Assembly: GCA_038107695.1 (NCBI GenBank)
Contig: JAYNHF010000004.1
Location: 8,576-72,575, forward strand
Source of the DNA: Flavobacteriaceae bacterium
GTDB lineage: Bacteria; Bacteroidota; Bacteroidia; Flavobacteriales; Flavobacteriaceae
Direction of reading: 5' to 3'
Length of the DNA stretch: 64,000 nt
Position 1 is the first letter of the stretch. Every line of letters starts with the position of its first letter. Below, one piece after another: positions 1 through 64,000 of the stretch. Under the pieces are notes generated by a model, which saw only the letters and a list, made by a program, of their open reading frames with translations, did not search any database and was not told where the DNA came from. The position numbers were made by a program, and so were the translations under genes.

Positions 1-63
1 TCACAACCCTCAGTGGTCGGCGCCAAAAGCCCTTGTAGAATTATTCAAAAAAATAGAAAAACA

Positions 64-1527: not shown

Positions 1528-1540
1528 GAAACAAAAAAAT

Positions 1541-3628: not shown

Positions 3629-3666
3629 TGTTTGAATCAGGCAATCTAGTGTTATAAAAAATTATC

Positions 3667-17246: not shown

Positions 17247-17256
17247 AAGCACTTTC

Positions 17257-43222: not shown

Positions 43223-43307
43223 GGAGAAATGGCAGAGTGGTCGAATGCGGCAGTCTTGAAAACTGTTGAGGGTCACACCTCCGGGGGTTCGAATCCCTCT
43301 TTCTCCG
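43223..43307 (+). tRNA. tRNA-Ser (anticodon UGA), class II with long variable arm
   Basis: Acceptor stem GGAGAAA/TTTCTCC. Anticodon stem-loop GCAGT-CTTGAAA-ACTGT gives anticodon TGA. Long variable arm (tgagggtcacacctccg). T-arm GGGGG-TTCGAAT-CCCTC. Discriminator G; CCA is not encoded. Confidence 0.92.
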
Positions 43308-43314
43308 CAATACT

Positions 43315-43684: not shown

Positions 43685-46600
43685 TCACTCTGACATGTCT
43701 TTTTCTTTGATCCTTGTTGGCAATACACCGTAATGATCCTTAAAACACTTGGTAAAATAAGAAGGAGACGAAAATCCAACCTTGTAGGTGACTTCGCTGA
43801 CGTTGAGTTTTTGAATTTTCAAAAGTTGTTTGGCTTTTTTAAGACGAACTTTTCTGATAAATTCATTTGCTGTATCACCAGTTAAGGATTTTATTTTTCT
43901 GTATAGTTTACTTCGACTAAGGGACATCTGACCAGCAAGATTTCCAACGTTAAGTGACTCATCACTAATGTTTTCGTTAATGTACTGGATAACACTATTT
44001 ATAAATTCTTTATCTAAAGATGTTGAATTTTCTGTATTAATTTTTTCTACGATTCCATTGAAGTATTTATCAAACAAGATTTGTCTGCTTTTAATGAGCT
44101 GTTTCAAATGCGATTTGAGAACATCCATACTGAAGGGTTTATTAAGATACACATCGGCTCCAGAGTCAATTCCTTTTAAACGGTCTACCTCCATACTTTT
44201 GGCTGTTACCATTAAAATGGGAATATGACTGGTTTTTATATCATTCTTAATCTGATGGCAAAATTCAAACCCGTCCATCGAAGGCATCATGACATCGGTT
44301 ATGATAATATCAGGAATGTACTTACATGCCATTTCTATACCCTTTTTTCCATCATCAGCTTCTTTGATTTGGTATTCATTTTTTAACTCATTTTTAATGT
44401 AATTTCTCAAATCATAATTGTCCTCAACTATTAATGCGATCTTTTTATTTTTAAAATCTTTCTCACTGTCTAAAATAACAGATTCCTCCAAAGCGAGTTT
44501 AGCGCTTTTATCTGTATTGGAGTATTTTTTCTTTGGCTCATAATTATCCTCTAAATGACTGTTTCCAGCAGGAAGATAAATTTTAAATTTCGATCCTTTA
44601 TTTTCTTTACTTTTCAATACAATTTTACCTTTATTTAGCTCAATAAAATGTTTGACTAACTCTAAACCTATACCTGAGCCTCCTTTGTAAGTATTTTCTT
44701 TTTCATTAGAATGAAAAAAGCGATCGAAAATTTTGTCTTTATTTTCTTTCTTTATTCCAATTCCATTATCCTTAATGACAATTCTAATGGCTTGCACGGG
44801 TTCATTATCATTGACTAATGGCAATAAAACATATTTTAAAGGCTGTTGAATACTTACCGTTATTTTACCTCCGACAGGTGTTGCTTTGAAAGCATTGGAC
44901 AACAAATTAAAAATGATTTTTTCCAACATGGATTGGTCAGTCCAAATGATGATATCTTTTTCTTCATATTCAAAATCAAGGGTGATACTTTTGATGATAG
45001 CTTCCTCTTCAAAATGACTCAGAACTTCATCCACAAAGGGAACGACAAGGATTCGAGATGTATTAATGGCCGTTTTGTTAAATTGTAACTTTCTAAAATC
45101 CATTAACTCATTGATCATTCTGGATAATCGTTTTGCATTTTTATAGATGGTTTTATGTTTTTCTCTAAGTTCCGCAGGTAATTTTGTTAAATCTTTTTTG
45201 ATGATATCTTCTAGCGGGGTTAAAATAAGGGATAAGGGTGTTCTGAATTCATGAGAAATATTCGTGAAAAACTGTATTTTTTTAGCATTCAAAGCTTCCT
45301 GTTGACGATTGTTTTCTCTTTCAAAATTTAAAATTCTTTTTTGATTGATTCTCTCTGCAATGACACTAAAAATTAAATAAGAGAGTAAACACATAATTAT
45401 TACATAGAATATGATGGCATACACACTAATCCACCATGCAGGTAATATTTTGATAGCAATCTCGGCTGGAACTTGATTCCAAATACCGTCATTATTAGCA
45501 GCTTTTACCCTGAAGGTATAATCTCCTGGCGGTACATTTTTATACGTTACCTTTCTGGTGGTGTTTGATTGAATCCAATCCTCATCAAATCCCTCAAGCA
45601 TATATGCGTATTGATTACTTTTACTTCGGGTATAACTAATACCTATAAATCCCAAAGAAAACTGAGATTGAAAGTTCCTTAATGTGATTTGTTTGGATTT
45701 ACTAATCACTTTTTTCAAAGGAGAATTTTTTGATTTAGGTGTTATTATATCACCCGCAAGCTCGAGTTCTGTAAAAAATACGGAGGGAAGCTCTTTATTT
45801 TTGATAATATTGTCAGGAACGAAATAATTTATTCCTTTTGTGTTTCCAAAAAATAATTCGTTGGAAGCACTTCTGTAGACAGAATTGTAATTAAAATTGT
45901 TAGAGAGTAATCCATCATCTTTATTAAAGTTTGTAAAGGTTTTATTCTCCAAATTTAATTTTGACAAACCATTATCTCCACCGATCCAAATAGATCCTCT
46001 TTCATCTTCTATAATAGAGGATACGGAAGAGCTTATGAATCCGTCGGAGGAAGAATAGTAGCGCAATTTGTCCGATTTCTTATCATAAACAAAAAGACCT
46101 CTACCTTGTGAACCAATCCAAATTCGGTTATTTTGATCTTCGAAGAGACTAAAAATGATGGTGGGCTCCGATGGGTTACCCAAAATAGCATTCATTTTAT
46201 CGTTTAAACTTTTTATTTGATATACTTTAGATTGATTGTTTTTTTGTAAGTGATAAACACCTGATCGGGTTCCCAACCAGAGGTCATCGTCTTTATCAAC
46301 AATTATTTTTCTGATATTGCTTGAGTTGATATTAAAAGAAGAAAAAGGCGACTGATTGTGGTGTGTAAAAGATTCATCCTTTGGGTCAAAAGAGTACAAC
46401 CCACTTAAAAAAGTCCCTATCCATATAACTCCTTGGGAGTCCTCTGCAAATGTCATTATACGGTTAGACTTCAATACAGATTTTATAGAACTTTTATTAA
46501 TATTAATAAATGATTTGGCATTCTTTTTAAGTAAATAAATACCGTTGTTCCATGTCCCAACCCATATATTATCTCGACTGTCTTTAAATACACTCTGAAT

Positions 46601-47872
46601 ATCTTGAGCATTTAACCCCTTTGCAATCGTATTTTTTGGATTATTGAGATTGGTGAATTTTTTGGTATTAAAATCATAGACATCAATGCCTCCATCAAGT
46701 AAGCCTATCCATAATCTACTTTTTTCATCGGATATAATACTTGTAACCGAATTTGAATTTAAAGAGTAATTAGGCTGAGCAGGGATGAGTTTAAATGATT
46801 GAAATTTATTGTGATTTTCATCATATACGTCTATACCTTGGTTATAATAACCCAACCAAACACGATCTTTTTCGTCTGTAAAAATTGACCATATAGAGTT
46901 GGACTTAAGTCCATCATTCGTGAATTTATTGTATCTAAGGTTATTGATATTATCGTTTTCGTAATCAATTTCAAAAAGTCCGTCATTCTCTGTACCGCAA
47001 AGGATATTACCGTTGGATTTTTCTGAAAGTGATAAGATTCTATTTTTACTGATTTTAAAATTTTCTATAGTGAATTCACCGAGACTATTTTCCCTTAATC
47101 TAAAAACTCCCGATGAAAAAGTTCCAATCCAGATGGAATGGTCAGTAGTCGTAATCATGGATTGTATTGAAATTGGAAGGATTTCATAACTTTCACCAGT
47201 ATCCAATTTAGCAATACTGAGTTCTTCATTATATTCATCGTATATCATTAACCCCCTGTTGGTTCCAACCAATTGCTTTCCTCTTTTAGATTTCGAAAAA
47301 CAGTTAATTAACAATCCAGCATTAGAAAAACTACTTTTGTTTTTGATTAACTCCATTGTATTACTTTCGATAGCAAATTTGTAGAGTCCATTTCCATGAG
47401 TTCCAAGGAGTAAATGGTCTTCGTCAAAATCAGTTATTGCGTGAACAGCCAACTTTTGGGTTGATATACTATCTTGAATTTCTATTTCCTCAAATTGGTC
47501 GAGATTCGAATTATATTTATTTATTCCTAACTCTGTACCCACCCAAATTCTATTTTTTCTGTCTTTAAGAATGGAGTAAACCAAAGAACTATTGAGAGAA
47601 GTACTGGGCGAGTTGTATTCTTTTTTATAGTTTTTGAAATCGATGCTGTTGAATTTGAATAAACCATCACCATTTGAGGTAATCCAAAGGTATCCTTCAT
47701 CATCTTTAACTATATTGGTGATGCCGTATTGAGTAATATCCTCCTCTACAGTGACAAAACTTTGACTTAAAAACTTTTTTTGAGTATGGGCGATTTGAAA
47801 AAAGAATAGGCTTACTATAAAAAAAATAAAAGCGAATTTAAAATTCCAAAAAGTACAACCCTTACAATTCAT
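43685..47872 (-). CDS. hybrid two-component system regulator (HTCS): periplasmic beta-propeller/Y_Y_Y sensor, histidine kinase, receiver and AraC-type HTH
   Basis: 1395 aa. Contains many 'W(I/V)GT..GL' Reg_prop-like repeats, one TM segment, the H-box 'FFTNISHEFRTPL' and the HATPase motif 'DNGIGI...GSGIGL'. Receiver domain 'ALIVEDNYDLRNYI...DIIITDVMMPSMDG'. C-terminal AraC HTH 'VGFSSPSYFTKCFKDHYGVLP'. It is divergent from susC. Confidence 0.92.
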   Translation of the reverse strand: MNCKGCTFWNFKFAFIFFIVSLFFFQIAHTQKKFLSQSFVTVEEDITQYGITNIVKDDEGYLWITSNGDGLFKFNSIDFKNYKKEYNSPSTSLNSSLVYSILKDRKNRIWVGTELGINKYNSNLDQFEEIEIQDSISTQKLAVHAITDFDEDHLLLGTHGNGLYKFAIESNTMELIKNKSSFSNAGLLINCFSKSKRGKQLVGTNRGLMIYDEYNEELSIAKLDTGESYEILPISIQSMITTTDHSIWIGTFSSGVFRLRENSLGEFTIENFKISKNRILSLSEKSNGNILCGTENDGLFEIDYENDNINNLRYNKFTNDGLKSNSIWSIFTDEKDRVWLGYYNQGIDVYDENHNKFQSFKLIPAQPNYSLNSNSVTSIISDEKSRLWIGLLDGGIDVYDFNTKKFTNLNNPKNTIAKGLNAQDIQSVFKDSRDNIWVGTWNNGIYLLKKNAKSFININKSSIKSVLKSNRIMTFAEDSQGVIWIGTFLSGLYSFDPKDESFTHHNQSPFSSFNINSSNIRKIIVDKDDDLWLGTRSGVYHLQKNNQSKVYQIKSLNDKMNAILGNPSEPTIIFSLFEDQNNRIWIGSQGRGLFVYDKKSDKLRYYSSSDGFISSSVSSIIEDERGSIWIGGDNGLSKLNLENKTFTNFNKDDGLLSNNFNYNSVYRSASNELFFGNTKGINYFVPDNIIKNKELPSVFFTELELAGDIITPKSKNSPLKKVISKSKQITLRNFQSQFSLGFIGISYTRSKSNQYAYMLEGFDEDWIQSNTTRKVTYKNVPPGDYTFRVKAANNDGIWNQVPAEIAIKILPAWWISVYAIIFYVIIMCLLSYLIFSVIAERINQKRILNFERENNRQQEALNAKKIQFFTNISHEFRTPLSLILTPLEDIIKKDLTKLPAELREKHKTIYKNAKRLSRMINELMDFRKLQFNKTAINTSRILVVPFVDEVLSHFEEEAIIKSITLDFEYEEKDIIIWTDQSMLEKIIFNLLSNAFKATPVGGKITVSIQQPLKYVLLPLVNDNEPVQAIRIVIKDNGIGIKKENKDKIFDRFFHSNEKENTYKGGSGIGLELVKHFIELNKGKIVLKSKENKGSKFKIYLPAGNSHLEDNYEPKKKYSNTDKSAKLALEESVILDSEKDFKNKKIALIVEDNYDLRNYIKNELKNEYQIKEADDGKKGIEMACKYIPDIIITDVMMPSMDGFEFCHQIKNDIKTSHIPILMVTAKSMEVDRLKGIDSGADVYLNKPFSMDVLKSHLKQLIKSRQILFDKYFNGIVEKINTENSTSLDKEFINSVIQYINENISDESLNVGNLAGQMSLSRSKLYRKIKSLTGDTANEFIRKVRLKKAKQLLKIQKLNVSEVTYKVGFSSPSYFTKCFKDHYGVLPTRIKEKDMSE

Positions 47873-48061
47873 AATTAATCATGTAAGAATAATGAAAATA
47901 TTCTATTATCATATAAATTATTGTAAATCATAGACTTGTTTGCTTCAAAAATGATATTTTTTTCTTCAAATATTACATTTTCAAATTTACTTTACACATA
48001 TTTTTACTTATTATATATAAAAATCTTTTAAAAATCAGTTAAAAACCAATAACAACGATTT

Positions 48062-51000
48062 ATGAAAAATCTTTTTCTAATACTAATCTTCTCACCCATT
48101 TTGATTTTTTCTCAATCAAGATCTGTGAAAGGAACTGTTTCAGATGATATGGGTATGCCACTTCCAGGAGTAGCGATAGTGATTAAGTCTGATCCATCAC
48201 AAGGCGTCACTACTGACTTTGATGGTAACTTCTCAATAGATATCCCAGACGACCAAGACGGTATTTTAATCTTTACATATGTTGGTTTTTCCAACCAAGA
48301 GATAGATGCCTCAGAGGTTTCTGTAATTAATTTAAGTATGCAACCCGATGAAACATTACTTGAGGAGGTTGTTGTCGTGGGTTATGGTACTGTTCTTAAA
48401 AAGGATGTGACAGGGTCACTTTCGACTGTAGAAGTGGAAAGTGAAGTAGCAAATCAGTCAACTTCTATTGACCAGCTTCTACAAGGAAGAGCAGCCGGAG
48501 TGCAGGTCATACAAAATTCAGGATCACCTGGATCGGGAATCAGTGTTAAGATTCGAGGCACCAACAGCTTAAGGGGTAATAACGAACCATTATATGTTAT
48601 TGATGGAGTCATTATTTCATCTGCTGGAGAGGATGTTATGCCTGCTGGTGGAATTGGGAATTCTGGTCAAGAAATACAGAACGGGCTCAATGGAATCAAC
48701 CCTAGAGACATTGAGAGCGTACAAATATTAAAAGATGCTTCAGCTACAGCCATTTACGGTTCAAGGGGTGCCAATGGTGTAGTATTAATTACCACCAAAA
48801 AAGGGAGCAGTAGCAAAGTGAAAATAAATACTTTCGTGACGAGCTCTATACGATCGGTAACCAAAAAATACGACGTATTGGATGGACTAACATATGCCAA
48901 ATATAGAAATGAAACCCTTGAGTTGGAGGGAAACAACCCAGCTTATCAAATTACTGATAATGAAGTATTTAGAATCAGTTATGGTGATGATGGTGATGAC
49001 CCAGGATCCTCTTCTTCATTGTCTGCTGGCATCTACAAGTGGCAAAATGAGTTGTTTCGTCAAGGTTTTAGTACCAAGGCTGGTTTATCAGCCTCTGGGG
49101 GAAGTGATAAAGGAAACTATTACGTTTCAGCAGGTTTTGATAACCAACAAGGAGTCATTGAAAATTCAAGCCTCAAGAGTGGTGATCTTAGAATTAACCT
49201 AAATCAAGATTTAAATGATAACCTCAAATTAGAAGCTCGAGTAAGTGCCTTTTTTAACGAGACTGATTTTGCAGAGTCAGGGGATTTGATTGGAGCCAAT
49301 CAGAGCTTTATAAGAAACGTTATTGCTTTTAGACCGGTCATTTCTGAAGAGATTGATGAATTTAATGAAGATTTAGAGGCTTCAAACCCTTTTTCATGGG
49401 TAGAGGATTTCTATGATCAGTCAAAAGAAAAAAGATACATCGGTTCTTTGGGATTAACCTATAAACTCCCTTTGAAGGGCCTCAGCTATCAATTCAAGGT
49501 TGGAGGTAATTCAAGAACCAAAGATCGAAGACGTTTTTACGGTTTGACTACTTTTCAAGGTAGTGCAGCAAATGGTGCACTGCAAATTTCCACTCTTAAT
49601 TCCAATTCCTATCAAATCAATAATTTTTTAAGGTTCAATAGGGATTTTAATAATAAACATAGAATCAATGCATTGTTGGGTACTACCTATGATGTAAGGA
49701 ATGTTAACAGTAGCATCTATGCTGTTGAAAGTTTTGTAACTACAGAGTTGACCACATTGCAACCTTATTTGGGGTCTGCCATTACCCAACCGCTCAGGTA
49801 TCTCAAATCTGATCAACAAATATTTTCTTTGCTTGGTCGGATAAATTATACTTTTAATAATAAGTACATTGCTACTGTTTCCTTTAGAAGGGATGGTGTT
49901 TCAAAATTTTCTGAAGAGAATCGCTATGGTAATTTCCCCTCTTTTGCGTTGGCTTGGAGAATGGAAAATGAAGGATTTATTAGCAATTTAGATGCTTTTG
50001 AAGATTTAAAAATTAGGGCTGGTTGGGGACAAATCGGTAACCACGGTATTGGTCCCTATGGTACTTTGTCTAACTATGGTGTGAGTGATAATCTTTACGG
50101 TAATACCAGCAATGGTACTACAGTTCCTCTAAGTTTGAATAACATTGCCAATCCTAATCTAACATGGGAGAAGACAGAACAAATCAATTTTGGATTAGAT
50201 TTTGCCTTAAAAGACAACTTTATTTCGGGATCCATTGATCTTTATGAGAAAACAACCAAGGACTTACTCCAAAATAGTCCCATACCTACTTCATCAGGTT
50301 ACAGTAATATTTTGATTAACAGAGGAAGTGTTTCTAATAAAGGTATGGAAGTTGCATTGAATGTGGCGGCCGTTTCAAAAGAAAACTTCGAATTGAGTTT
50401 AGGAGCCAACATTGCTTTTAATCAAACAAAAATTGAAGAATTAGGGATTCCCAACAATGATTTTTTCATCGATGGAGTTGCCCAACAACGTTCTTTTTAT
50501 TTTGGTCAGAATATCAGTAGGGGTAATATTTTTAAGGCTCCTGCGAATGTATTTGTTGAAGGTGAGGAATCTAGTTTGTTTTACGGATTTAAAACCAATG
50601 GAATATATCAGACGGAGGATACTGATTTGGTGGAAGGAGCTGTTCCTGGTGATGTCAGAATAGTAGATCAAAATCAAGATGGAAAGATAGATTTGGATGA
50701 CAGAACTTTTATAGGAAATCCTAATCCCGATTTTGTTTACGGTTTTAACTTGTCGCTTAGAATAAAAAGAATCTCTGCTAAATTATTATTTAATGGTGTT
50801 CAAGGGAATGATATCGCAAACGGAAATCTTCTTCAGTTGGATAATGCAGAGGGGATTATTACCAATATAAGACCTGATGCATACAACAACGCATGGAGAC
50901 CTGACGCACAGTCGAATACATATCCAAGAATTGGTTTTACCACTAATGGAAGGGTGGCCATATCAGATCGGATCATCGAAGATGGAAGTTATCTTAGGTT

Positions 51001-51223: not shown

Positions 51224-51246
51224 TCGTGATTATTAAAAATATAAAA

Positions 51247-52773: not shown

Positions 52774-52826
52774 AAATTAAGTTAATCAATATGTGTTCTG
52801 AGTTGTTTATGATCTATTGAGCTATT

Positions 52827-53936: not shown

Positions 53937-53966
53937 TTAAAATGTATTTGAAACAAAAGTGAAGTA

Positions 53967-55391: not shown

Positions 55392-55394
55392 AAA

Positions 55395-57062
55395 ATGAAT
55401 GGTTTTTTGAAAATACTGATTTTATGTTTGTTGGCAATGTTCCATTTGGATTCTATTGCTCAAAAAATCAATCAAAAACCTTTGAATGTCATATGGTTAA
55501 GTACAGAGGACATGGGACCTTTGTTGGGGTGTTATGGAGTCAAAGGGATTGATACTCCAAACTTGGATAAACTTGCCAGTGAAGGAATCACATACAAAAA
55601 CGCATTTGCTACTGTTGGTGTGTGCGCACCGAGCAGGTTTTCTATCATAACAGGAATGTATCCCATTCGACTTGGAGCTCACAACATGAGAACCGGTGAT
55701 TATCATAATTACAAAACACCCGAGGAAGTCACCCACACAACCTATATTGGGGTAAGAGATAAGAATGGTAACAATGTGCCTGAATATGAGGTGGTTACTC
55801 CAAATGAAGTCAAATGCTTTACAGAAATCCTTCGAGCTGAGGGATATTATTGTGCCAATAGCTTTAAATGCGACTATCAATTCAATGCCCCTTTTACGGC
55901 TTGGGATGATGTCTCGTTTAACGCCACTTATCGCAATGCACCAAAAGGCAAACCTTTTTTCTATGTCAAAAATTTTATGGTTACACATGAATCCAGAATA
56001 TGGATTCGAAAGGAGGAACCGCTTTCAGTAGCTCTTGATGAGGTTGAAGTGCCGTCTTATTTTCCAGATATTGAGCAAGTTCGACACGACATTGCCAGAA
56101 AGTATTCCAATATAGAGGAAATGGATCGTCAACTTGGGGTTTTGATGGCTAATTTAGAAGCTGACGGATTACTTGACAGCACTATTATTATGTTTTGGAG
56201 TGACCACGGTGGAAATCTTTTAAGGCAAAAAAGGGCGGTTGGAAAAAGTGGGCTCAATGTTCCTCTTATCATTCGATACCCTGACAAAAGAATGGCTGGA
56301 ACGGTCAGTGAGAGAATAGTATCACTAATGGATTTAGGCCCAACGGTCATGTCCCTGTTGAATATCAAACCTCCTGATCATTACGATGGAAAACCATTTG
56401 CAGGCAAGTTTGCCAGTACACCTCGGTCATATGCTTATGGCAGTGCAGACCGTTTTGATGAAGCCACTGACATGCAACGCTCTGTAACCGATGGAAGATT
56501 CATGTATATCAAAAATTTCATGACACAATTACCGCTGATTTATCGCAATAGATATCGGGAACAAATACCTATGAATGCTGCATTAATTGAAATGGATAGA
56601 AACAATGAGTTGACCGGAGATGCTGCGTACATATTTATGAAAACCAAGCCTATCGAAGAATTATATGATTTAGAAAACGATCCCTATGAGGTAAATAACT
56701 TGGCTAAAGATCCTAAACATCAAAAGCAACTGATCAAAATGAGAGGGTTGGTAACCCAATGGCAATGGGAGGTTGGAGACAAGGGATACATTCCGGAAAA
56801 TGATTTGGTTGCAATGTTTTGGCCAAACATGATTCAACCTAAAACTGCTGAAGTAAAATTCAGTTCAATCAAAACCAAGAAAATAATTTTGTCTTCTGCA
56901 ACCAAAGGAAGTTCGATAGGTTATCAAACAGGACCCCAAATCGGTTCTAATCATTGGACACTTTACTCAGGACCTATCCAATACGCATCAGAAAAAAAAA
57001 TAGTCGCTAGAGCCATTAAAATAGGGTATCAGGCTTCAGAAATCACATCAAACTTAAACTAA
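55395..57062 (+). CDS. S1-family sulfatase with extra C-terminal beta-sandwich-like domain
   Basis: Signal peptide. 'VIWLSTEDMG', FGly motif 'CAPSRFSIITG' and 'WSDHGG'. The last 80 aa or so ('...WTLYSGPIQYASEKKIVARAIKIGYQASE') resemble a chitobiase/hexosaminidase C-terminal (CHB_HEX_C_1-like) module. Confidence 0.9.
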   Translation: MNGFLKILILCLLAMFHLDSIAQKINQKPLNVIWLSTEDMGPLLGCYGVKGIDTPNLDKLASEGITYKNAFATVGVCAPSRFSIITGMYPIRLGAHNMRTGDYHNYKTPEEVTHTTYIGVRDKNGNNVPEYEVVTPNEVKCFTEILRAEGYYCANSFKCDYQFNAPFTAWDDVSFNATYRNAPKGKPFFYVKNFMVTHESRIWIRKEEPLSVALDEVEVPSYFPDIEQVRHDIARKYSNIEEMDRQLGVLMANLEADGLLDSTIIMFWSDHGGNLLRQKRAVGKSGLNVPLIIRYPDKRMAGTVSERIVSLMDLGPTVMSLLNIKPPDHYDGKPFAGKFASTPRSYAYGSADRFDEATDMQRSVTDGRFMYIKNFMTQLPLIYRNRYREQIPMNAALIEMDRNNELTGDAAYIFMKTKPIEELYDLENDPYEVNNLAKDPKHQKQLIKMRGLVTQWQWEVGDKGYIPENDLVAMFWPNMIQPKTAEVKFSSIKTKKIILSSATKGSSIGYQTGPQIGSNHWTLYSGPIQYASEKKIVARAIKIGYQASEITSNLN

Positions 57063-58547
57063 ATGAAAAATCAAAATTCTAAATATAAGATTATCACACT
57101 ATTAGTTATAGTGATGATTGGGTTCGGATTTAGTGAAATTTCTAATAAAGTTGATTCAGTCCATCATACCGAAAAAGCTGAAGTGAAAAATAGTAATAAA
57201 AATATCCTCTTTATTTCAATTGACGATCTAAGACCACTGATCAATTCCTATGGTGTTTCTAAAATGATAACCCCAAACTTTGACAAATTGGCTTCTGAGA
57301 GTGTTCAATTCAATAATGCCTTTACCAATATAGCCGTATGTGGGGCAAGTAGGGCCAGTATTATGACGGGGATCAGGCCCAGTCAGAAGAGATTTAACGA
57401 TTACAGATCAAGAGCCTCTGTCGATGTACCTAATGCTACTCCTCTAAATAAGTTATTTAAAGACAATGGCTATGAGACCATCTCTTATGGTAAAATATTT
57501 CATTACGTTGACGATCATTACCAACATTGGACAGAGATTGATAATGGAGCTCCTCAAGCTGACTACCAGGATCCCATTTCCCAGGAACGCAAAAGAAATG
57601 GAGAAATGGGCTCACACGGTAGAAAAGGTCCAGCAGTCGAATATCCTGATGTTGATGACTATGCCTATACAGATGGGAAAATCACCAAAAAAGCATTACA
57701 AAAATTGAAAGCCCTTAAAAAAGAAAACAAACCTTTTTTTATGGCCTTAGGCTATGTATCTCCTCACTTACCGTTTATTCAGCCCAAGAAATACTGGGAC
57801 ATGTATGATCACGATGATATTGAATTGGCAGACAATGTCTATCATCCTAAAGGTGCACCTTACATTGCCACTAGGTCACAGCACTTTTCAGCAGAGCTAA
57901 GGAATATGTATTTAGACATTCCTAAATCTGGAAATTTAGATGACGAGTTGTCCAAAAACTTAATACATGGTTATTATGCAAGTGTAAGTTATTTAGATGC
58001 CATGATTGGTGAACTCATTGATGGGTTGGACGAAATGGGATTAAGAGATAGTACCACTATTGTATTGTGGAGTGATCACGGGTACTTTCTAGGAGAACAT
58101 GGGTTTTGGTGTAAGCATAGCACTTTTTATGAGGCTGTCAAAATACCCTTGTGGATTTCCTCTCCTAATTATGCTAAAAATAAAAAAACAGATTCTTTTA
58201 CAGAGCTAGTGGACATCTATCCGACCCTATGTGATATTACTGGAATATCTTCTCCAGAATATCTCCATGGAGAAAGCCTAAAACCTGTGCTTGAAGATCC
58301 TAATATGATATTGAAAACTGAAATTTATACTCGCTACAAACAAGGAGAAGCTGTTATCGATAAGGATTTTTCTTATACCGAATTCTATAATGGTGAAAAA
58401 TATATGGGTAATATGCTCTTTGATCTCCATGAGGATTTAAAACAGAATCGAGATATCTCTGAGAAAAAGGAAAATGAGAAAATTGTAGATAGATACAGTG
58501 AAAAATTGAAAATTATGAGAGAAAAAGTAAACCAAAATCCTATTTGA
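57063..58547 (+). CDS. S1-family sulfatase, iduronate-2-sulfatase-like
   Basis: 'ILFISIDDLRP' and '...NAFTNIAVCGASRASIMTGIRP' are collinear with human IDS 'DDLRP...[22 protein letters not shown]'. The FGly motif is the C-x-A-x-R variant. 'WSDHGYFLGEHG'. Confidence 0.9.
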   Translation: MKNQNSKYKIITLLVIVMIGFGFSEISNKVDSVHHTEKAEVKNSNKNILFISIDDLRPLINSYGVSKMITPNFDKLASESVQFNNAFTNIAVCGASRASIMTGIRPSQKRFNDYRSRASVDVPNATPLNKLFKDNGYETISYGKIFHYVDDHYQHWTEIDNGAPQADYQDPISQERKRNGEMGSHGRKGPAVEYPDVDDYAYTDGKITKKALQKLKALKKENKPFFMALGYVSPHLPFIQPKKYWDMYDHDDIELADNVYHPKGAPYIATRSQHFSAELRNMYLDIPKSGNLDDELSKNLIHGYYASVSYLDAMIGELIDGLDEMGLRDSTTIVLWSDHGYFLGEHGFWCKHSTFYEAVKIPLWISSPNYAKNKKTDSFTELVDIYPTLCDITGISSPEYLHGESLKPVLEDPNMILKTEIYTRYKQGEAVIDKDFSYTEFYNGEKYMGNMLFDLHEDLKQNRDISEKKENEKIVDRYSEKLKIMREKVNQNPI

Positions 58548-58548
58548 C

Positions 58549-59082
58549 ATGAAATTAAAATTCATTTTCATACTATCACTTGTTGCATTAATGATGGTCA
58601 ATGGTTTGTTTGGTCAAAACGTCAAAAGTAAAAATCTAAAAAGATCCAATATTGGAGCTGGTTATTCTTCGGCAAGTATGGTTCAAAACAACAAAACTTA
58701 TGTAATTCAACAATCAATTGGACAAACAAGTGTAATTGGTACCCATAGTAATGATAACTATACCCTAAGACAGGGCTTTATTCAACCAGATATTTTAGAA
58801 AAAATCATTGACAAACAAATTCCAATGATACTTGATCTGGTTTTTTACCCCAACCCTTTCTATGAAAAAGCTAACCTGTCTTTTTCAGAGGTTATTGAGG
58901 GAGGTGTTGAAGTTCAGGTTTTTGATATTCTTGGTAGACTAATTATCTCAAACAAATACCAGCCTTCCCAGCAACTTGAGCTCAATCTCGATCTACCCAA
59001 TACTGGAGACTACATTATCAAGGTAAAAGCCAATAATAAACAATTTATAAAACATATTCTCAAAGGGGGAACTAAAAAGTAA
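58549..59082 (+). CDS. small secreted protein consisting almost only of a T9SS C-terminal sorting domain
   Basis: Signal peptide 'MKLKFIFILSLVALMMVNGLFGQ' and an N-terminal region of about 70 aa containing 'QSIGQTSVIG...YTLRQGFIQP'. The C-terminal region of about 80 aa ('LVFYPNPFYEKANLSF...VQVFDILGRLI...DYIIKVKANNKQFIKHILK') matches the type-A Por/T9SS CTD pattern. Confidence 0.7.
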   Translation: MKLKFIFILSLVALMMVNGLFGQNVKSKNLKRSNIGAGYSSASMVQNNKTYVIQQSIGQTSVIGTHSNDNYTLRQGFIQPDILEKIIDKQIPMILDLVFYPNPFYEKANLSFSEVIEGGVEVQVFDILGRLIISNKYQPSQQLELNLDLPNTGDYIIKVKANNKQFIKHILKGGTKK

Positions 59083-59094
59083 AAACCATAAACA

Positions 59095-59760
59095 ATGAAA
59101 AAACTGATATTAATTTTAACGCTGCTAATAGGAACCAGTATTGTTTCAGCTCAAAAAATACATTTTGAAAGTGGTATTACTACAAGCAAATTCGATTATC
59201 AAAATTCAAATGGAAATCCACTGATGAACCTTAAACAGGTAAATGGTCGCTATTTGGCATTTGGATATAGCCAAAAACTATTTACAGAAAATCTTTATCT
59301 AAAACTCGATTTCAACTATTCCAGTTATGGCTCTATTGGAAGTGATATCGACTTTGGAAATTTTATGGAGTGGGAAGTATCATATGCAGGGGCGGGTCTT
59401 AGTTTTGATCTGGTATTACTTACCTACAAAAAACTTAAATTAACTGCCACTGGGGGCGGTTCGGCTGCTCTCCTTCACCGAGGAAATCAAATCATTAACA
59501 ACACAGTCACCGGTTTGAAAGGAAATCCAGATTTTGATGGGACGCTTTTCACCCCATTCTTTGGAGGAGGATTTTCCTACCCAGCCACAGACAACTTAGA
59601 CTTCTTTGTGAAGTATATTAATGGAAAGAGTTTAGACATTGCCAAGGGAAGAGAAACTTTAAAGTTTGAAAGCAGCACCATTTCATTTGGTGTTATGATT
59701 GGTATAGAGGCAGAAAAGAAAAAACATGTAGGAATTACTAATGAATCAAAAAACAAATAA
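59095..59760 (+). CDS. small outer-membrane beta-barrel (OmpA-N/porin-family-like) protein
   Basis: Signal peptide 'MKKLILILTLLIGTSIVSAQ'. Alternating hydrophobic beta-strand pattern with aromatic girdle residues ('YLAFGYSQ', 'LKLDFNYSSYG', 'VSYAGAGLSFDL', 'PFFGGGFSYP', 'ISFGVMIGI'). Confidence 0.55.
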   Translation: MKKLILILTLLIGTSIVSAQKIHFESGITTSKFDYQNSNGNPLMNLKQVNGRYLAFGYSQKLFTENLYLKLDFNYSSYGSIGSDIDFGNFMEWEVSYAGAGLSFDLVLLTYKKLKLTATGGGSAALLHRGNQIINNTVTGLKGNPDFDGTLFTPFFGGGFSYPATDNLDFFVKYINGKSLDIAKGRETLKFESSTISFGVMIGIEAEKKKHVGITNESKNK

Positions 59761-59761
59761 G

Positions 59762-61594
59762 ATGAAAAAAAGAGCATTTTTATTATTCATATTTCTAATT
59801 ATTGGATTAAATGGTTTTTCACAGACAAAAGCAATAAGTTATCAGGCAGTAATTCTCAATCCTCAACAGCAGGAATTACCTGGTAGTAATATACAGACCA
59901 ATGTACTCATGCATAGGTATGTTAGTATCCAGTTTGTCATTGAAGGACCAGCAGGTGATATTCAATATGAAGAAGTTCACAACACAAAGACAGACCGTTT
60001 TGGGATGATCAATCTTTTGATTGGTAAAGGTCAAAAGGTAAGTGTCAATACTTTTGATGAAATATCATGGGATGGTACAGGAAAAATGTTGAAAGTAGGA
60101 ATTGATTTTTCTGGCGGTTCTAACTTTGAACCTTTAGGTCAGCAAGAGCTTACTTTTTACCCCCAACCTCCCTCTGAGGAAGTAAGGGCACAAATAGATC
60201 AATTAGAGGAAACTGTCTCCAAAAATTCGAAAAAGGTTGGTCTGTCTGACGCACACATTAATACCCTTGAAATTGTCTCGGGCATTACTACTCAAACCCT
60301 TCAGGAAATTAATGACAATAATGAAAAAATTAATGAAATTGAATCTAAGGTTTCAGATTTGGAAGATGACATCGGTAATGTTTCTTTTAATGAATTGAAC
60401 GCAGCAACAAAAGCCTATATAGACCAATTACTTATTAAAGTAGCGGATCCAGCCAAATTGATTGCAGCTGGATTTTCATTTGCTGCAGTAACAGGAGGAA
60501 AAACGGTAGCACAACTGTATGCCGATGGAATTTCGGTTGCTGATCTTATTCAGTCAGGTGCAACAGCCACAGAATTAATTAATGCTGGTGCACCAGTTTC
60601 GGAAATGTTCAACGGTGGTTTAAGTTATACTGAACTGGTCACCGGTGGAGTAAGTGTTTCTGACCTCCAGTCTATTGGGGCAAGTACTTCGGATCTTGTT
60701 GCCGCCAATGCTTCAATATCTGAAATGATCGCAGCGGGAATTAGTGTTGGTGATTTATTGAATGAAAATGTTACTGTAAGCCAGCTTGTCTCTGGAAACG
60801 CTCCCATAAGCGACCTATTGTCTGCGGGGGTTAATGTTGGAGAATTGGTAAGCGCAAATGCTAGCTTGGCAGATATGTTGGCAGCAAATATTAGCATCCA
60901 AGATCTTCTCAATGAAAATGTAACGGTAAATGCCTTGGTTTCAAGCGGAGCCTCTGTTTCTGACCTTATAGCGGCAAGTGTAACAACTGCGCAGTTGGTT
61001 AGTGCAGGCGCTTCAACTTCAGATATGTTGGCAGAAAGTAGTATTAGCGTTCAAGATCTACTCGATGCCGATGAAACTGTACTAAATCTATTGAATGCCT
61101 CCGTAACGGCTTCAAGTTTGATTGGAAAGCTGTACCAAGGAGGTATCATTACCTACGTTAATAACTCTGACGGAACAGGCTTAATTGCAGCACTTTCTGA
61201 TGCCTCTGGATCTGTAATTGATTGGGCAAATCCTGCTTCACAAGTTATGGGTACCAGTGCAGCAATTGGTGCTGGTGCAGACAATACAACTAAAATAATT
61301 ACGGCATTAGGCACTGGAATATCTGCTGCTGCTCAGGCAAATGCATATACTAGTGGCGGATATAATGATTGGTTTTTACCCAGTCCTGACGAAATAAAGA
61401 CCCTTTGGGATAACCTCGCCACACTTAATTCAACTACTGGCTTTACAGATATTAAATATTTTACTTGGACATCTCACAATAATAATGGTGGCACTTACGC
61501 TCAAAGATTAAAAAAACCAGATGGTACGATTGCTGGTGCTGGACAAACAGGAAACAATGGAAATAACTATGTACGACCCATGCGTTATTTCTAA
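59762..61594 (+). CDS. secreted fibre-like protein: N-terminal Ig-like module, coiled coil, ~22 x 10-aa repeat tract and C-terminal DUF1566 (Lcl C-terminal-like) domain
   Basis: The ATG at 59762 gives the signal peptide MKKRAFLLFIFLIIGLNGFSQ. The N-terminal 'ISYQAVILNP...QFVIEG...YEEVH...FGMINLLIGKG...ISWDG...LKVGIDFSGG' pattern is common in Bacteroidota tail-fibre-like proteins. Heptad-like stretch 'QIDQLEETV...INEIESKVSDLEDDI'. C-terminal 'GGIITYV..GTGLIAA...W...IGAGADNT..I...GGYNDWFLPSPDEIKTLW' matches the DUF1566 pattern. Confidence 0.6.
   Translation: MKKRAFLLFIFLIIGLNGFSQTKAISYQAVILNPQQQELPGSNIQTNVLMHRYVSIQFVIEGPAGDIQYEEVHNTKTDRFGMINLLIGKGQKVSVNTFDEISWDGTGKMLKVGIDFSGGSNFEPLGQQELTFYPQPPSEEVRAQIDQLEETVSKNSKKVGLSDAHINTLEIVSGITTQTLQEINDNNEKINEIESKVSDLEDDIGNVSFNELNAATKAYIDQLLIKVADPAKLIAAGFSFAAVTGGKTVAQLYADGISVADLIQSGATATELINAGAPVSEMFNGGLSYTELVTGGVSVSDLQSIGASTSDLVAANASISEMIAAGISVGDLLNENVTVSQLVSGNAPISDLLSAGVNVGELVSANASLADMLAANISIQDLLNENVTVNALVSSGASVSDLIAASVTTAQLVSAGASTSDMLAESSISVQDLLDADETVLNLLNASVTASSLIGKLYQGGIITYVNNSDGTGLIAALSDASGSVIDWANPASQVMGTSAAIGAGADNTTKIITALGTGISAAAQANAYTSGGYNDWFLPSPDEIKTLWDNLATLNSTTGFTDIKYFTWTSHNNNGGTYAQRLKKPDGTIAGAGQTGNNGNNYVRPMRYF
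60452..61125 (+). repeat. in-frame degenerate tandem repeat, 30-nt / 10-aa period (~22 units, consensus S-x-S-D-L-[VIL]-x-A-G-[AV])
   Basis: Protein read-out: ...ISVADLIQSG ATATELINAG APVSEMFNGG LSYTELVTGG VSVSDLQSIG ASTSDLVAAN ASISEMIAAG ISVGDLLNEN VTVSQLVSGN APISDLLSAG VNVGELVSAN ASLADMLAAN ISIQDLLNEN VTVNALVSSG ASVSDLIAAS VTTAQLVSAG ASTSDMLAES... Nucleotide identity between units is only moderate. Confidence 0.8.
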
Positions 61595-61622
61595 AATTAA
61601 CAAAAATCAAAATTAATAAACG

Positions 61623-62171
61623 ATGCAAAATACATCTATAAGATGCTTTATATCCTGTCTAATGATGGGACTACTATCCATATCATTATCTGCTCAAGAT
61701 AAAATTGAACTCAAAAACAGTCAGCTAGAAGGATCCAACGCCCAGGGTGAGTTTTACTGGTGGAAACACCAAGCCAAAGGCGGAGGGGAGGCCAACTACT
61801 CTATTGAGTATAATGATGTAAACGAAGGAAGTAAAAAAGCCTTAAAAGCTGAAATCAAATCCTTGGGAACAAAACCTTGGTTCGTCAGCAGTCAATTCAA
61901 TCAGAAATTTAAAGCCAAAGCTGGAGATGAAATCACGATAACTTTTTTTGGAAAAAAAACTACTGGTAATAAAAGTAAAATAAAATTAGTTTTCCAGTCT
62001 GATATCAAAGGGAGTTTTCAAGGAAAAGATTTTATTATGACTGAGGAATGGAAATCATATTCCCACACATTTGTTGTCAATGAAAAAAGTAGTAATAATC
62101 AAATCAAATTTTGGTACATGGAGGTGGGCGCCACCTATTTGATAGATGATGTCAATATCTATAAAAATTAA
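61623..62171 (+). CDS. stand-alone secreted carbohydrate-binding-module-like protein (CBM4_9/CBM22-like beta-sandwich)
   Basis: Signal peptide 'MGLLSISLSAQ'. 'NSQLEG...W...' at the start and 'TEEWKSYSHTF...IKFWYMEVGATYLIDDVNIY' at the end fit the CBM_4_9 pattern (W/Y platform, terminal 'iDDv'). No catalytic domain is present. Confidence 0.5.
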   Translation: MQNTSIRCFISCLMMGLLSISLSAQDKIELKNSQLEGSNAQGEFYWWKHQAKGGGEANYSIEYNDVNEGSKKALKAEIKSLGTKPWFVSSQFNQKFKAKAGDEITITFFGKKTTGNKSKIKLVFQSDIKGSFQGKDFIMTEEWKSYSHTFVVNEKSSNNQIKFWYMEVGATYLIDDVNIYKN

Positions 62172-62216
62172 TAAACTAAAAATAACTTATTTAAAACTAA
62201 ATTGAATTTTACATTA

Positions 62217-63320
62217 ATGAAAAAGACTTCCTTCTTAATACTATTATTTATCATCCTATTTTTTTCAGAGAAAAAGCTCCAAGCCCAGACAAGTGTTTCC
62301 AATGATAAATTTACTGCCAAAAAATTAACTACTAACACAAAATTCTTAAACCCCCCATTAGTTTCAGAGATCTATACAGCAGATCCGTCCGCTCATGTTT
62401 TTGGTGGTCGCATCTATATATATGGATCGCATGATATCGAAAGTACTGTTATTGACGACGACTGCGGAAGTCAATACAGCATGAGAGACTACAGAGTACT
62501 ATCAATGGATTCTGTTGGAGGTCCTGTGACTGTTCACAAAGTTGGATTAGACCTTGATGATGTTCCATGGGCGACCCGACAATTTTGGGCACCAGATGCA
62601 GCCTATAAAAACGGGAAGCATTATCTGTATTTTCCCTCTAAAGATAAAGACGATAGATTCAGAATTGGCGTTGCCGTTTCAAGTAAACCAGAAGGTCCAT
62701 TTGTTGCAGAACCCAACTTCATTCCCGGAAGTTACAGTATAGATCCTGCTGTTTTTACTGATGATGATGGAAGCTCTTATATGTATTTCGGTGGTATATG
62801 GGGTGGCCAATTACAGAGGTGGGAGAATAACACTTATGAAGACTCCAATTGTAAAAAACAAGACAGAGGAAACCCAGAGACTCCAGCGATCATGCCAAGA
62901 ATAGCAAAAATGTCAGATGATATGCTTACTTTCAGTGAGGAGGTTAAAGAAGTGATGATACTTGATGAAAATGGTAATCCAATACTAACAAAAGACCATA
63001 ATCGTCGTTTTTTTGAAGCAGCTTGGATTCACAAATACAAAGGGGTATATTACTTAAGTTATTCAACAGGGAATACCCATTATCTCCAGTATGCCACAGG
63101 CGATAATCCTTATGGCCCATTTGTGTATCAAGGCATAATGAATCAACCCGTTAAAGGTTGGACTAATCACCACTCAGTGGTCGAAATAAACGATCAATGG
63201 TATCTTTTTTACCATGATATAGAACTTTCTAATCAAACCAACTTAAGAAACATAAAGATGGCCAAGTTAACTCATAATAAAGATGGATCTATTCAAACAA
63301 TCAATACCATATTGGATTGA
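62217..63320 (+). CDS. GH43 family glycoside hydrolase (beta-xylosidase/alpha-L-arabinofuranosidase type)
   Basis: Signal peptide. 'YTADPSAHVFGGRIYIYGSHD' (catalytic base Asp region), 'FWAPDAAYKNGKHYLYF' and 'FFEAAWIHKYKGVYYLSYS' (catalytic Glu region) are typical of five-bladed propeller GH43 enzymes. The ATG at 62217 is preferred over the TTG at 62202. Confidence 0.85.
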   Translation: MKKTSFLILLFIILFFSEKKLQAQTSVSNDKFTAKKLTTNTKFLNPPLVSEIYTADPSAHVFGGRIYIYGSHDIESTVIDDDCGSQYSMRDYRVLSMDSVGGPVTVHKVGLDLDDVPWATRQFWAPDAAYKNGKHYLYFPSKDKDDRFRIGVAVSSKPEGPFVAEPNFIPGSYSIDPAVFTDDDGSSYMYFGGIWGGQLQRWENNTYEDSNCKKQDRGNPETPAIMPRIAKMSDDMLTFSEEVKEVMILDENGNPILTKDHNRRFFEAAWIHKYKGVYYLSYSTGNTHYLQYATGDNPYGPFVYQGIMNQPVKGWTNHHSVVEINDQWYLFYHDIELSNQTNLRNIKMAKLTHNKDGSIQTINTILD

Positions 63321-63350
63321 TATGAAATAAAGCTTGGCCTAATATTAATT

Positions 63351-64000
63351 TTAAAAACGTTTGAAAAACTCCCAAACTTTGACCATTATTTGCGGATCTT
63401 CCCAATGTAAATTATGGGCACCATTTTCAACGCGTAAGTACCTTATTTCCTTTTGCTCATTGCAATTAGTAAAAATATAAAGTGTATCCTCACCAACAAG
63501 TTCAATTTGTGGATCAATCTTGCAATTGAAATGATTGGCCCACAATTGCGCACTTTCTAGTGCGTCCAGAAACACATGTCCCAATTTAGGACCTCCGTCA
63601 ATTGGAATTGTGGCATCGGCACCGCCATTGATCTGAAAAACAGATACAGGTTGTGTGTTTTCTCTTAATGGTGAACTTTCCATTAGTTGAGATACTATGG
63701 GAGCGATTGCATTGAAATGATTAGTTTCTATAGCTAGTTTATTGACCATTCCGGATCCATTGGATGTACCGATGGCATATATTTTATCAAAGTCTAAATT
63801 TCTATAATTTCTGAGTTTAGCAAAAATAAGATCAGCAAAAGCAATATCATCTGCTTTGGAGGGCTCGGTTCCTAAATTCCAAGAATTCAAATGACCTTGG
63901 GGATAAATTCCGATAAACTCTCCACTATCAGTAAAGTTTTTTAACCGATTGATCCAACTGGTGTTGGTACCCCCACGCCCATGAAAAGCAAACACTATAG
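63351..64000 (-). CDS. alpha/beta-hydrolase esterase, PHB-depolymerase/CE1-like (feruloyl or acetyl-xylan esterase type); 5' end beyond the window
   Basis: 'FAFHGRGGT' (oxyanion region) and nucleophile elbow 'AIGTSNGSGM' (G-x-S-x-G). The C-terminal 'GAHNLHW' supplies the catalytic His. The ORF is open to the window edge, so it is partial. Confidence 0.7.
   Translation of the reverse strand, partial: IVFAFHGRGGTNTSWINRLKNFTDSGEFIGIYPQGHLNSWNLGTEPSKADDIAFADLIFAKLRNYRNLDFDKIYAIGTSNGSGMVNKLAIETNHFNAIAPIVSQLMESSPLRENTQPVSVFQINGGADATIPIDGGPKLGHVFLDALESAQLWANHFNCKIDPQIELVGEDTLYIFTNCNEQKEIRYLRVENGAHNLHWEDPQIMVKVWEFFKRF

Follow-up and report, generated by a model that had tools for sequence, protein, structure and literature searches.

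Gene content of the locus

We analysed a 64,000-nucleotide stretch of a Flavobacteriaceae bacterium (NCBI GenBank assembly GCA_038107695.1, contig JAYNHF010000004.1, positions 8,576 to 72,575 of the forward strand; hereafter the window). From position 43,685 to its end the window carries a polysaccharide utilization locus (PUL) in which a GH10 xylanase, a GH43 enzyme and a CE1-like esterase are combined with three S1 sulfatases (Table 1). A gap of 2 bp separates the SusC-like from the SusD-like gene, the GH10, sulfatase and GH43 genes follow downstream in the same orientation, and the gene of a hybrid two-component system (HTCS) regulator is divergent; these are the features by which Bacteroidota PULs are recognised. 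The plus-strand genes are spaced like those of an operon, with intergenic gaps of −20 to 53 bp in the open reading frame (ORF) listing and gaps of 0–3 bp from sulfatase gene to sulfatase gene. A scan for sigma-70 promoters and terminators, which is uninformative for Bacteroidota, gave about as many hits as chance would (61, with 60.5 expected, and 10, with 11.2 expected, respectively). An initial annotation, made from the letters of the sequence, had listed the HTCS, SusC/D, GH10, three sulfatases, four non-catalytic secreted proteins, GH43 and a convergent esterase. This gene content, together with the positions, was confirmed by the ORFs and by Pfam, and the motifs that had been quoted (WDVVNEA, ITELDV, CAPSRS, CAPSRF and CGASRA) are all found in the translations. 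The combination of GH10/GH43 with three sulfatases is not new, and the PUL family that carries it has been described by prediction since 2018. Our comparisons indicate that the locus is probably a rearranged form of this 'sulfated xylan' PUL family of marine Flavobacteriia, and the best reading of the sequence is that its substrate is a sulfated xylose-based β-1,4 glycan.

Table 1. Genes of the predicted sulfated-xylan locus, with window coordinates, strand and supporting matches
Product	Position	Strand	Matches and remarks
HTCS regulator	43685-47872	-	Pfam Reg_prop, Y_Y_Y, HisKA, HATPase_c, Response_reg, HTH_18; divergent from the operon
SusC-like TonB-dependent transporter	48062-51223	+	Pfam CarbopepD_reg_2, Plug
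SusD-like glycan-binding lipoprotein	51226-52773	+	Pfam SusD-like_3, SusD_RagB
GH10 endo-β-1,4-xylanase	52827-53936	+	Pfam GH10, E 2.8e-90; single domain, signal peptide
S1 sulfatase A (CAPSRS)	53967-55391	+	Pfam Sulfatase 2e-40, SGSH_C 1.4e-20
S1 sulfatase B (CAPSRF), S1_8-like	55395-57062	+	Pfam Sulfatase 9.5e-33
S1 sulfatase C (CGASRA), S1_7-like	57063-58547	+	Pfam Sulfatase 4.7e-37
177-aa small protein with C-terminal sorting domain of the type IX secretion system (T9SS)	58549-59082	+	Por_Secre_tail 3.8e-11; first gene of the inserted module
221-aa secreted protein	59095-59760	+	signal peptide; second gene of the inserted module
617-aa mosaic surface-fibre-like protein	59741-61594	+	Pfam Decapeptide 6.5e-27; Lcl_C 1.3e-5 (under the curated cut-off)
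182-aa stand-alone carbohydrate-binding module (CBM) of CBM4/CBM22 type (predicted)	61623-62171	+	Pfam: weak DUF642 only; assigned by homology and an AlphaFold2 (AF2) model
GH43 (GH43_1-like) β-xylosidase	62202-63320	+	Pfam GH43 5e-30
CE1-like lipoprotein esterase, C-terminal 215 codons	63351-64000	-	convergent; gene runs past the window end

The three sulfatases

Sulfatases A to C each carry the C-x-[PA]-x-R maturation motif inside the Pfam Sulfatase domain, and the SDHG metal/active-site motif is present in all three. Like GH10 and GH43, they have plain signal peptides, with neither a lipobox nor a T9SS tail. The family and subfamily labels used here for the sulfatases, GH43 and the esterase were assigned by proxy, from the closest solved relatives among the PDB matches. 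For sulfatase C the best match was 6HHM (E 1.1e-84, 39% identity over 412 aa, 288 bits), ahead of human iduronate-2-sulfatase (3e-58, 201 bits) and of a third match at 4e-36 (128 bits). The entry 6HHM corresponds to P18_S1_7, the enzyme with which Formosa agariphila desulfates xylose-2-sulfate in an endo-acting step of ulvan degradation (PMC9096561, PMC9825549), and the two best solved relatives of sulfatase C both belong to S1_7. A substrate complex of the ulvan sulfatases that could be used for a comparison of subsites has not been reported (PMC9096561). Judged by these relatives, sulfatase C is probably an S1_7-like endo-acting xylose-2-O-sulfatase.

The top five PDB matches of sulfatase B are all S1_8A, S1_8B or S1_8C structures (9BB9 at 5.9e-73, 9BBA and 9BBD among them; 5.9e-73 to 1.5e-55, 250–187 bits), followed by human SGSH at 112 bits, and the best match outside S1_8 reaches 93 bits. 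S1_8A, S1_8B and S1_8C of Pseudoalteromonas distincta are all galactose-2-sulfate 2-O-sulfatases (bioRxiv 10.1101/2025.01.09.632246). S1_8 also includes the exo-acting xylose-2-sulfate sulfatase P32_S1_8 and heparan N-sulfamidase, and SulfAtlas gives regioselectivity for position 2 as a feature in common (PMC9825549). Because position 2 is the site of action of every characterised S1_8 enzyme that came up, sulfatase B is probably an S1_8-like exo-acting 2-O-sulfatase. For the sulfatase that resembles iduronate-2-sulfatase, the initial annotation had ventured a 2-O-sulfate on a pyranose without C6 as target. This guess gains support from the rank of P18_S1_7 ahead of the human enzyme and from the S1_8-like character of sulfatase B.

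Sulfatase A gave weak and split PDB matches, the best of them to S1_8A at 2e-37. It is 27% identical to sulfatase B, with which it has a C-terminal ELYDLE.DPY..NNLAK motif in common, and it appears to be S1_8-related but could not be assigned to a subfamily. Its orthologues (57–69% identity) are always the first gene of the sulfatase trio.

Conservation and gene order in related loci

Scanning species-representative genomes with sulfatase C yielded 80 loci, which were compared with all proteins of the locus by tblastn. The three sulfatase genes occur in the same order, A–B–C, in 48 of these 80 species loci (57–74% identity), mostly in metagenome-assembled genomes (MAGs) and single-amplified genomes (SAGs) of marine Flavobacteriaceae including Formosa and Polaribacter. 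Orthologous SusC (63–72%) and SusD (46–65%) genes lie upstream of the trio in these loci, of which about 45 with the published architecture gave these identities, and HTCS orthologues (47–51% identity) adjoin it in L011, L014, L017 and L050. GH10 and/or GH43 is visible in the fetched flank of 34 of the 48 trio loci; the other 14 stop at a contig end 2–7 kb after sulfatase C. When all orthologues at least 50% identical to sulfatase C are counted (66 species loci), GH10 or GH43 is found in the flank of 52, and the remaining 14 again stop at a contig end 2–7 kb downstream. Planctomycete homologues of sulfatase C (40–43% identity) have no xylan genes nearby.

The canonical order, as resolved with Pfam in a Polaribacter MAG (L029), comprises 14 genes: SusC, SusD, a CBM4_9/GH30-like T9SS protein, the three sulfatases, a T9SS protein, a β-helix T9SS protein, GH10, MFS_2, GH43, GH11, an esterase and a transaldolase. 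Genes for xylulokinase, xylose isomerase and a Na+/solute symporter (SSF) stand directly after GH43 in L005, L010–L012 and L015–L017. A second architecture is found in Cryomorphaceae-like SAGs and MAGs (L054–L068, for example L067 3140–20161) and reads SusC, SusD, S1_7 sulfatase, GH43, xylulokinase, xylose isomerase, SSF, GH10, GH10, LacI. Its lone S1_7 sulfatase is 50–53% identical to sulfatase C, some of these loci have a sulfatase-A-like gene upstream, and the xylose isomerase matches 4XKM at 2e-189. The SusC of the window is 55–58% identical to that of the single-sulfatase xylose loci. This second architecture may represent a minimal operon for sulfated xylo-oligosaccharides and may be the cleaner test system. 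As far as sequence comparison can tell, the S1_7 clade is tied to xylan or xylose genes in two independent gene orders, and we regard this as the strongest computational evidence that the sulfatases and xylanases serve one substrate.

The form seen in the window is common to the MAG GCA_028101325.1 (L085; 74–85% identity) and to the metagenome contigs L089 and L090. These three are the nearest relatives and retain GH30. The parent contig of the window (L001) was found by an exact-sequence match of sulfatase C and is Ga0606699_0000028 of the JGI metagenome 3300063957, with a length of 69,970 bp. It extends 3.7 kb past the window, which adds the complete esterase gene and a PL9-like T9SS protein. 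No GH30 was found in the window or in L001, and 30 bp lie between GH10 and sulfatase A. Fusion genes of GH10 and sulfatase (pattern 1 of Krüger et al.) were not found within the fetched flanks. In the metagenome contig L086 (3765–9885) the trio lies beside a Transposase_mut fragment and LacI-type and NrtR-like regulators, with only a 186-aa fragment of GH10; the locus appears to be decaying there or to have been rearranged.

Xylan-active enzymes and accessory proteins

The Pfam match of GH10 spans positions 1–309 of 311, and both motifs with the catalytic glutamates, WDVVNEA and ITELDV, are present. Its best PDB matches, from 1e-83 to 1e-80, are the small single-domain xylanases Xyn10B (3EMC, 1.2e-83) and IXT6 (2Q8X). 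We take this group to be oligosaccharide-active xylanases of the 'intracellular/oligosaccharide' type; the GH10 enzyme of the window has a signal peptide. It is about 30% identical to the GH10 of canonical loci, compared with 74% to the GH10 of L085. GH43 matches, nearly end to end, 5GLK (4.7e-145), the xylosidase 6XN0 (6e-121) and the β-xylosidase 4MLG (2e-115), which are known as GH43_1 enzymes. It shares 54–59% identity with the canonical copy and 66–70% with a second GH43 lineage. The longest GH43 ORF starts with TTG at 62202. In the source, the gene (367 aa) is called from the ATG at 62217, and the protein then begins with a conventional signal peptide (MKKTSFLILL...).

The presence of a CBM4_9/22 module, part of the initial annotation, is borne out by the 182-aa protein. 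With 37% identity (E 4e-38) it aligns to the CBM_4_9 domain that Pfam recognises at the N-terminus of the L029 GH30 protein. An AF2 model built with 20 homologues has a predicted local distance difference test score (pLDDT) of 87.3, and its top Foldseek matches are CBM4, the xylan-binding CBM4-2 of Rhodothermus marinus and the CBM22 of Xyn10C (probability 1.0, template modelling (TM) scores 0.58–0.70). According to the model, the protein is a free-standing CBM4/CBM22-type module with a β-sandwich fold.

The full esterase gene (L001 16289–17818) encodes 509 aa with a lipobox (IISC|GSGG) and two FN3/Ig-like repeats. The esterase domain is C-terminal, has a GTSNG elbow of the G-x-S-x-G type and is 65–68% identical to the terminal esterase of the canonical loci L021–L023, L028, L029 and L063. 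It matches the NCBIfam extracellular PHA-depolymerase type (2.6e-16, below the cut-off) and the feruloyl esterase 9J07 in the PDB (4e-15). No Pfam match was found for the esterase. The earlier label 'CE1-like' appears fair for the C-terminal half, where the matches to PHB-depolymerase-type and feruloyl esterases lie, and cannot be carried over to the whole 509-aa protein.

The PL9-like β-helix protein encoded just beyond the window end (L001 17815–20697, convergent) belongs to the locus. It has more than 960 aa, with thrombospondin type-3 (TSP_3) repeats and a T9SS sorting domain, and a full-length copy in L085 (17947–20946) adds a signal peptide and an N-terminal CBM-like region. Over about half of its length the protein aligns to the canonical copies with 29–34% identity. 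Among PDB structures, the PL9 rhamnogalacturonan lyase 5OLQ is the sole enzyme-like match, and a weak one (E 2e-4). In the literature, labels for the β-helix protein read PL9/CBM22, and a lyase makes little sense on a neutral xylan backbone.

The inserted putative surface-fibre genes

Between sulfatase C and the CBM gene lies an insert of three genes (58549–61594) that is found only in this lineage. The first has a counterpart outside any PUL: in L088 (7420–9731) a similar 173-aa T9SS-tailed protein precedes a Decapeptide/Lcl_C protein. The 221-aa protein, which has no Pfam or NCBIfam match even at E 5, is conserved only in L085, L089 and L090, with 65% identity in L085. The 617-aa protein is composed of a conserved N-terminal domain, a coiled coil, decapeptide repeats and a DUF1566/Lcl_C head, and a C-terminal DW.LPS...VR.VRAF signature is seen in the alignment. 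Many Bacteroidota proteins have a region 53–59% identical to its N-terminal ~140 aa, joined to other heads such as collagen, FN3, FISUMP or Lcl_C. The AF2 model of the DUF1566/Lcl_C head was too poor to be used (pLDDT 47). Lenient Pfam scans returned nothing credible for the 221-aa protein, for the N-termini of the 177-aa and 617-aa proteins or for the N-terminal 280 aa of the esterase. Taken by its domains, the insert looks like a member of a mosaic surface-fibre family with exchangeable heads, and we read it as a surface-fibre module that is not specific to the pathway rather than as one of its components. The 617-aa fibre may bind an anionic glycan.

Comparison with known and predicted systems

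A 'sulfated β-xylan' PUL (label sulfated_xylan_GH43_10_5) was reported in Formosa sp. Hel3_A1_48 by Kappelmann et al. 2018, and bloom metaproteomes contain SusC/D proteins 49–53% identical to those of this PUL (Kappelmann et al. 2018). Krüger et al. 2019 (PMC6794258), who worked on 38 North Sea metagenomes, named sulfated xylans as one of the four main targets predicted for PULs, and the canonical architecture of L029 equals a string published in the supplement of that study, in which the GH43 gene is annotated as GH43_1. Sulfated-xylan PULs were also described in Polaribacter clades 1-a, 1-b and 3-b (Avcı et al. 2020). The premise of the initial annotation that xylan PULs are not known for sulfatase triplets fails for the marine Flavobacteriia, whose published sulfated-xylan PULs carry them. 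The published supplements of Kappelmann et al. and Krüger et al. give no sulfatase subfamilies for these PULs in text form.

With the published family (pattern 2 of Krüger et al. 2019) the window locus shares orthologous SusC/D, the three sulfatases in the same order, GH10, a GH43_1-like enzyme, a CBM4/22 module, a tentatively PL9-like T9SS protein, the terminal esterase and the HTCS. It differs in several respects. The GH10 gene of the window is of another lineage (~30% identity) and stands directly after SusD, whereas GH30, which in the published family lies with its N-terminal CBM between SusD and the sulfatases, is absent, as is the MFS_2 transporter. The CBM forms the N-terminus of GH30 in the published loci but is a free-standing gene here. 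At its end the window locus has the PL9-like and esterase genes in convergent orientation, the three-gene surface-fibre insert follows the sulfatases, and xylose-catabolic genes are absent within the 64 kb.

Classical xylan PULs, for example those of Bacteroides and Flavimarina sp. Hel_I_48, have HTCS, SusC/D, GH10, GH43 and a CE1-type esterase in common with the window locus, and the likeness goes further in its relatives, which also have GH30, GH11, an MFS xyloside transporter and xylA/xylB. Classical xylan PULs usually carry side-chain enzymes such as GH67/GH115, GH51 and CE6, which are absent in the window locus. We know of no sulfatases in classical Bacteroidota xylan PULs.

The enzymes of ulvan degradation comprise ulvan lyases, rhamnosidases, GH105/GH88 and S1_25 sulfatases. 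These families are not among the Pfam hits of the window locus, the glycosidases of which are β-1,4-xylan enzymes. The ulvan PUL of Formosa agariphila KMM 3901 (Reisky et al. 2019), to the extent that it is summarised in PMC9096561 and PMC9825549, encodes P18_S1_7, P32_S1_8 and P36_S1_25. A pair of an S1_7 endo- and an S1_8 exo-sulfatase, both of which act on xylose-2-sulfate in the ulvan system, has its probable counterpart in the S1_7-like and S1_8-like enzymes of the window locus, whereas sulfatase C falls into a separate clade (members at least 50% identical) that is tied to xylan genes. The S1_8 2-O-sulfatases nearest to sulfatase B come from the λ-carrageenan PUL of Pseudoalteromonas distincta U2A, and two of them attack oligosaccharides in exo mode. 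There, however, the S1_8 enzymes act on galactose-2-sulfate together with GH150, GH110 and GH2, and no galactan enzyme is encoded in the window locus.

Proposed pathway and alternative explanations

GH10, GH43_1, GH30 and GH11 all include members active on β-xylan, and GH10, GH11 and GH43_1 are mainly β-1,4-xylan enzymes. Based on the gene content and the closest relatives we propose the following pathway. The HTCS would sense an oligosaccharide and turn on the operon. At the cell surface the lipoprotein esterase would remove ester decorations, and the T9SS-secreted CBM/β-helix (PL9-like) protein from beyond the window would help to open or fragment the polymer. Sulfated xylo-oligosaccharides would then be bound and taken up by SusD and SusC. 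Once they are in the periplasm, sulfatase C as an S1_7-like endo-enzyme would take the 2-O-sulfate off internal xylose and sulfatase B as an S1_8-like enzyme would carry out exo-desulfation, both ahead of cleavage by GH10. Sulfatase A would take off a further sulfate, the position of which we leave unspecified. The IXT6-like GH10 enzyme would cut the desulfated β-1,4-xylo-oligosaccharides, also in the periplasm, and the GH43_1 enzyme would free xylose, which would enter xylose isomerase/xylulokinase catabolism encoded elsewhere in the genome. In this proposal the split between endo and exo steps parallels the division of labour between S1_7 and S1_8 in the ulvan pathway. What the sequences show is the gene content, the orthology with the published family, the catalytic motifs, the closest characterised relatives and, in related loci, the physical link to xylose catabolism; substrate, sulfate positions, cellular locations and the sequence of steps are inferred.

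We tentatively go one step further than the assignment to the PUL family. It is conceivable, at somewhat less than even chances, that marine Flavobacteriia possess a dedicated xylan-desulfation route in which an endo-acting S1_7 xylose-2-O-sulfatase clade, distinct from the ulvan enzyme, an exo-acting S1_8 enzyme and a third sulfatase of an uncharacterised lineage work on a phytoplankton sulfated β-1,4-xylan that was not found chemically isolated. The lineage of the window may have recruited the T9SS-linked DUF1566/Lcl_C fibre in order to capture anionic glycan.

Several points weigh against a sulfated β-1,4-xylan as substrate. S1_7 is polyspecific and also holds iduronate-2-sulfatase and κ-carrageenan 4-sulfatases (PMC9825549). 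Sulfatase C is only 39% identical to P18_S1_7, and its regiospecificity is therefore not settled. Sulfatase A is without an informative relative among its PDB matches. The variant in the window has no obvious extracellular endo-xylanase; it lacks the T9SS-secreted GH30 and MFS_2, and the extracellular cutting step is therefore unclear. The PL9 assignment of the β-helix protein is weak, and a lyase would imply uronic acid in the substrate. Our full-text search of the openly accessible literature returned no biochemical characterisation of sulfated-xylan PUL loci or of their natural substrate, that is, neither a natural sulfated β-1,4-xylan from phytoplankton nor a characterised enzyme of this PUL family.

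The main alternative, which we regard as unlikely, is an ordinary β-1,4-xylan backbone with the sulfates on side-chain sugars (galactose, fucose, rhamnose or glucuronic acid) of a microalgal heteroxylan or another xylose-rich heteropolysaccharide. The polyspecificity of S1_7 speaks for it, as do the action of the S1_8 enzymes nearest to sulfatase B on galactose-2-sulfate and the lack of an assignment for sulfatase A. The PL9-like protein and the esterase suggest a decorated, possibly uronic-acid-bearing polymer, and a heteropolysaccharide would also fit the wording 'xylose-rich substrates' used by published authors. However, the glycosidases found in the window and in ~50 related loci are GH10, GH43_1, GH30 and GH11, with none for a sugar other than xylose, and a desulfated side-chain sugar would therefore be left without a dedicated enzyme for its removal. 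Moreover, xylose-2-sulfate is the substrate of the characterised enzyme to which sulfatase C is most closely related.

It is considerably less probable that the locus serves plain or esterified xylan and that the sulfatase trio is a passenger block for another pathway, in which case there would be no single substrate. GH10, GH43_1 and the esterase are indeed enough for the breakdown of xylo-oligosaccharides, and the gene order around the trio is plastic, with one GH10 lineage swapped for another, GH30 lost and the fibre module inserted. Against this, the trio sits between SusD and the xylanases with its very short internal gaps, and 48 species loci from several genera keep it there together with orthologous SusC/D. 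In addition, the second architecture is an independent case of a xylose operon in which an S1_7 gene stands after SusD and before GH43, and orthologues at least 50% identical to sulfatase C were never seen without xylan genes where the flank was long enough.

Ulvan-type material with Xyl2S-Rha3S repeats and red- or green-algal xylomannan or xylogalactan are very improbable targets and were rejected for want of a matching enzyme family: although it is in the ulvan PUL of Formosa agariphila that sulfatase C has its nearest characterised relative, the Pfam hits of the locus and of the scanned related loci include no polysaccharide lyase, rhamnosidase, unsaturated glucuronyl hydrolase, mannanase or galactosidase, the relatives add GH11 and GH30 and run on into xylose catabolism, and the carriers are mostly planktonic MAGs and SAGs rather than macroalga-associated isolates. 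The initial annotation had proposed a sulfated xylose-rich polysaccharide and had named these polymers as examples. Its general idea stands, with a sulfated xylose-based β-1,4 glycan predicted as the best reading, and the ulvan, xylomannan and xylogalactan examples are disfavoured, as no enzyme family points to them.

A small number of PUL types, sulfated-xylan PULs reportedly being one of them, dominate the turnover of glycans by Bacteroidota during spring blooms in the North Sea (PMC6794258). If the prediction is true, sulfated xylan would be a significant and so far uncharacterised pool of algal carbon and sulfatases A to C would be the first xylan-specific sulfatases, possibly useful in analysing dissolved organic matter from the sea and in handling pentosan polysulfate and other semi-synthetic xylan sulfates. 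The window locus itself adds little beyond the cultured carriers (Formosa sp. Hel3_A1_48, Polaribacter). Its value is that of a natural variant, which separates a core (SusC/D, the trio, GH10, GH43_1, CBM and esterase) from what is dispensable or exchangeable (GH30, MFS_2 and the GH10 lineage).

Genomic surroundings

No match to formylglycine-generating enzyme or anaerobic sulfatase-maturing enzyme was found among the proteins scanned in the window, and tblastn detected neither xylose isomerase nor xylulokinase nor a xylose symporter in the 64 kb, whereas many relatives keep xylose genes beside the PUL. The partners for sulfatase maturation and xylose catabolism must be encoded elsewhere in the genome.

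The left border of the PUL is sharp. Housekeeping genes lie upstream (ribBA, LptF/G, LolA-like, FtsK and KatG), and a tRNA-Ser gene (anticodon TGA, 43223–43308) is located between ribBA and the 3' end of the HTCS gene. In a profile of positions 40000–64000 the G+C content falls from ~0.40–0.44 in the housekeeping part to 0.31–0.39 across the PUL. The drop could mean that the PUL is an island integrated at tRNA-Ser, but a search of the window and of all loci for a further copy of the tRNA 3' end found none; the contig stops 3.7 kb past the window.

The remainder of the window encodes ordinary metabolism, including ilv and arg genes. Amid housekeeping genes lies the gene of a 733-aa CBM9-like and DUF5916 protein (17230–19431), which is unrelated to the PUL. 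At the opposite end (13–5262) genes on a single strand encode a GH29 α-L-fucosidase that also has an F5/8 type C domain, a protein resembling GH20 and an FAD amine-oxidase-like protein. They probably form the tail of a further glycan locus, truncated where the window begins.

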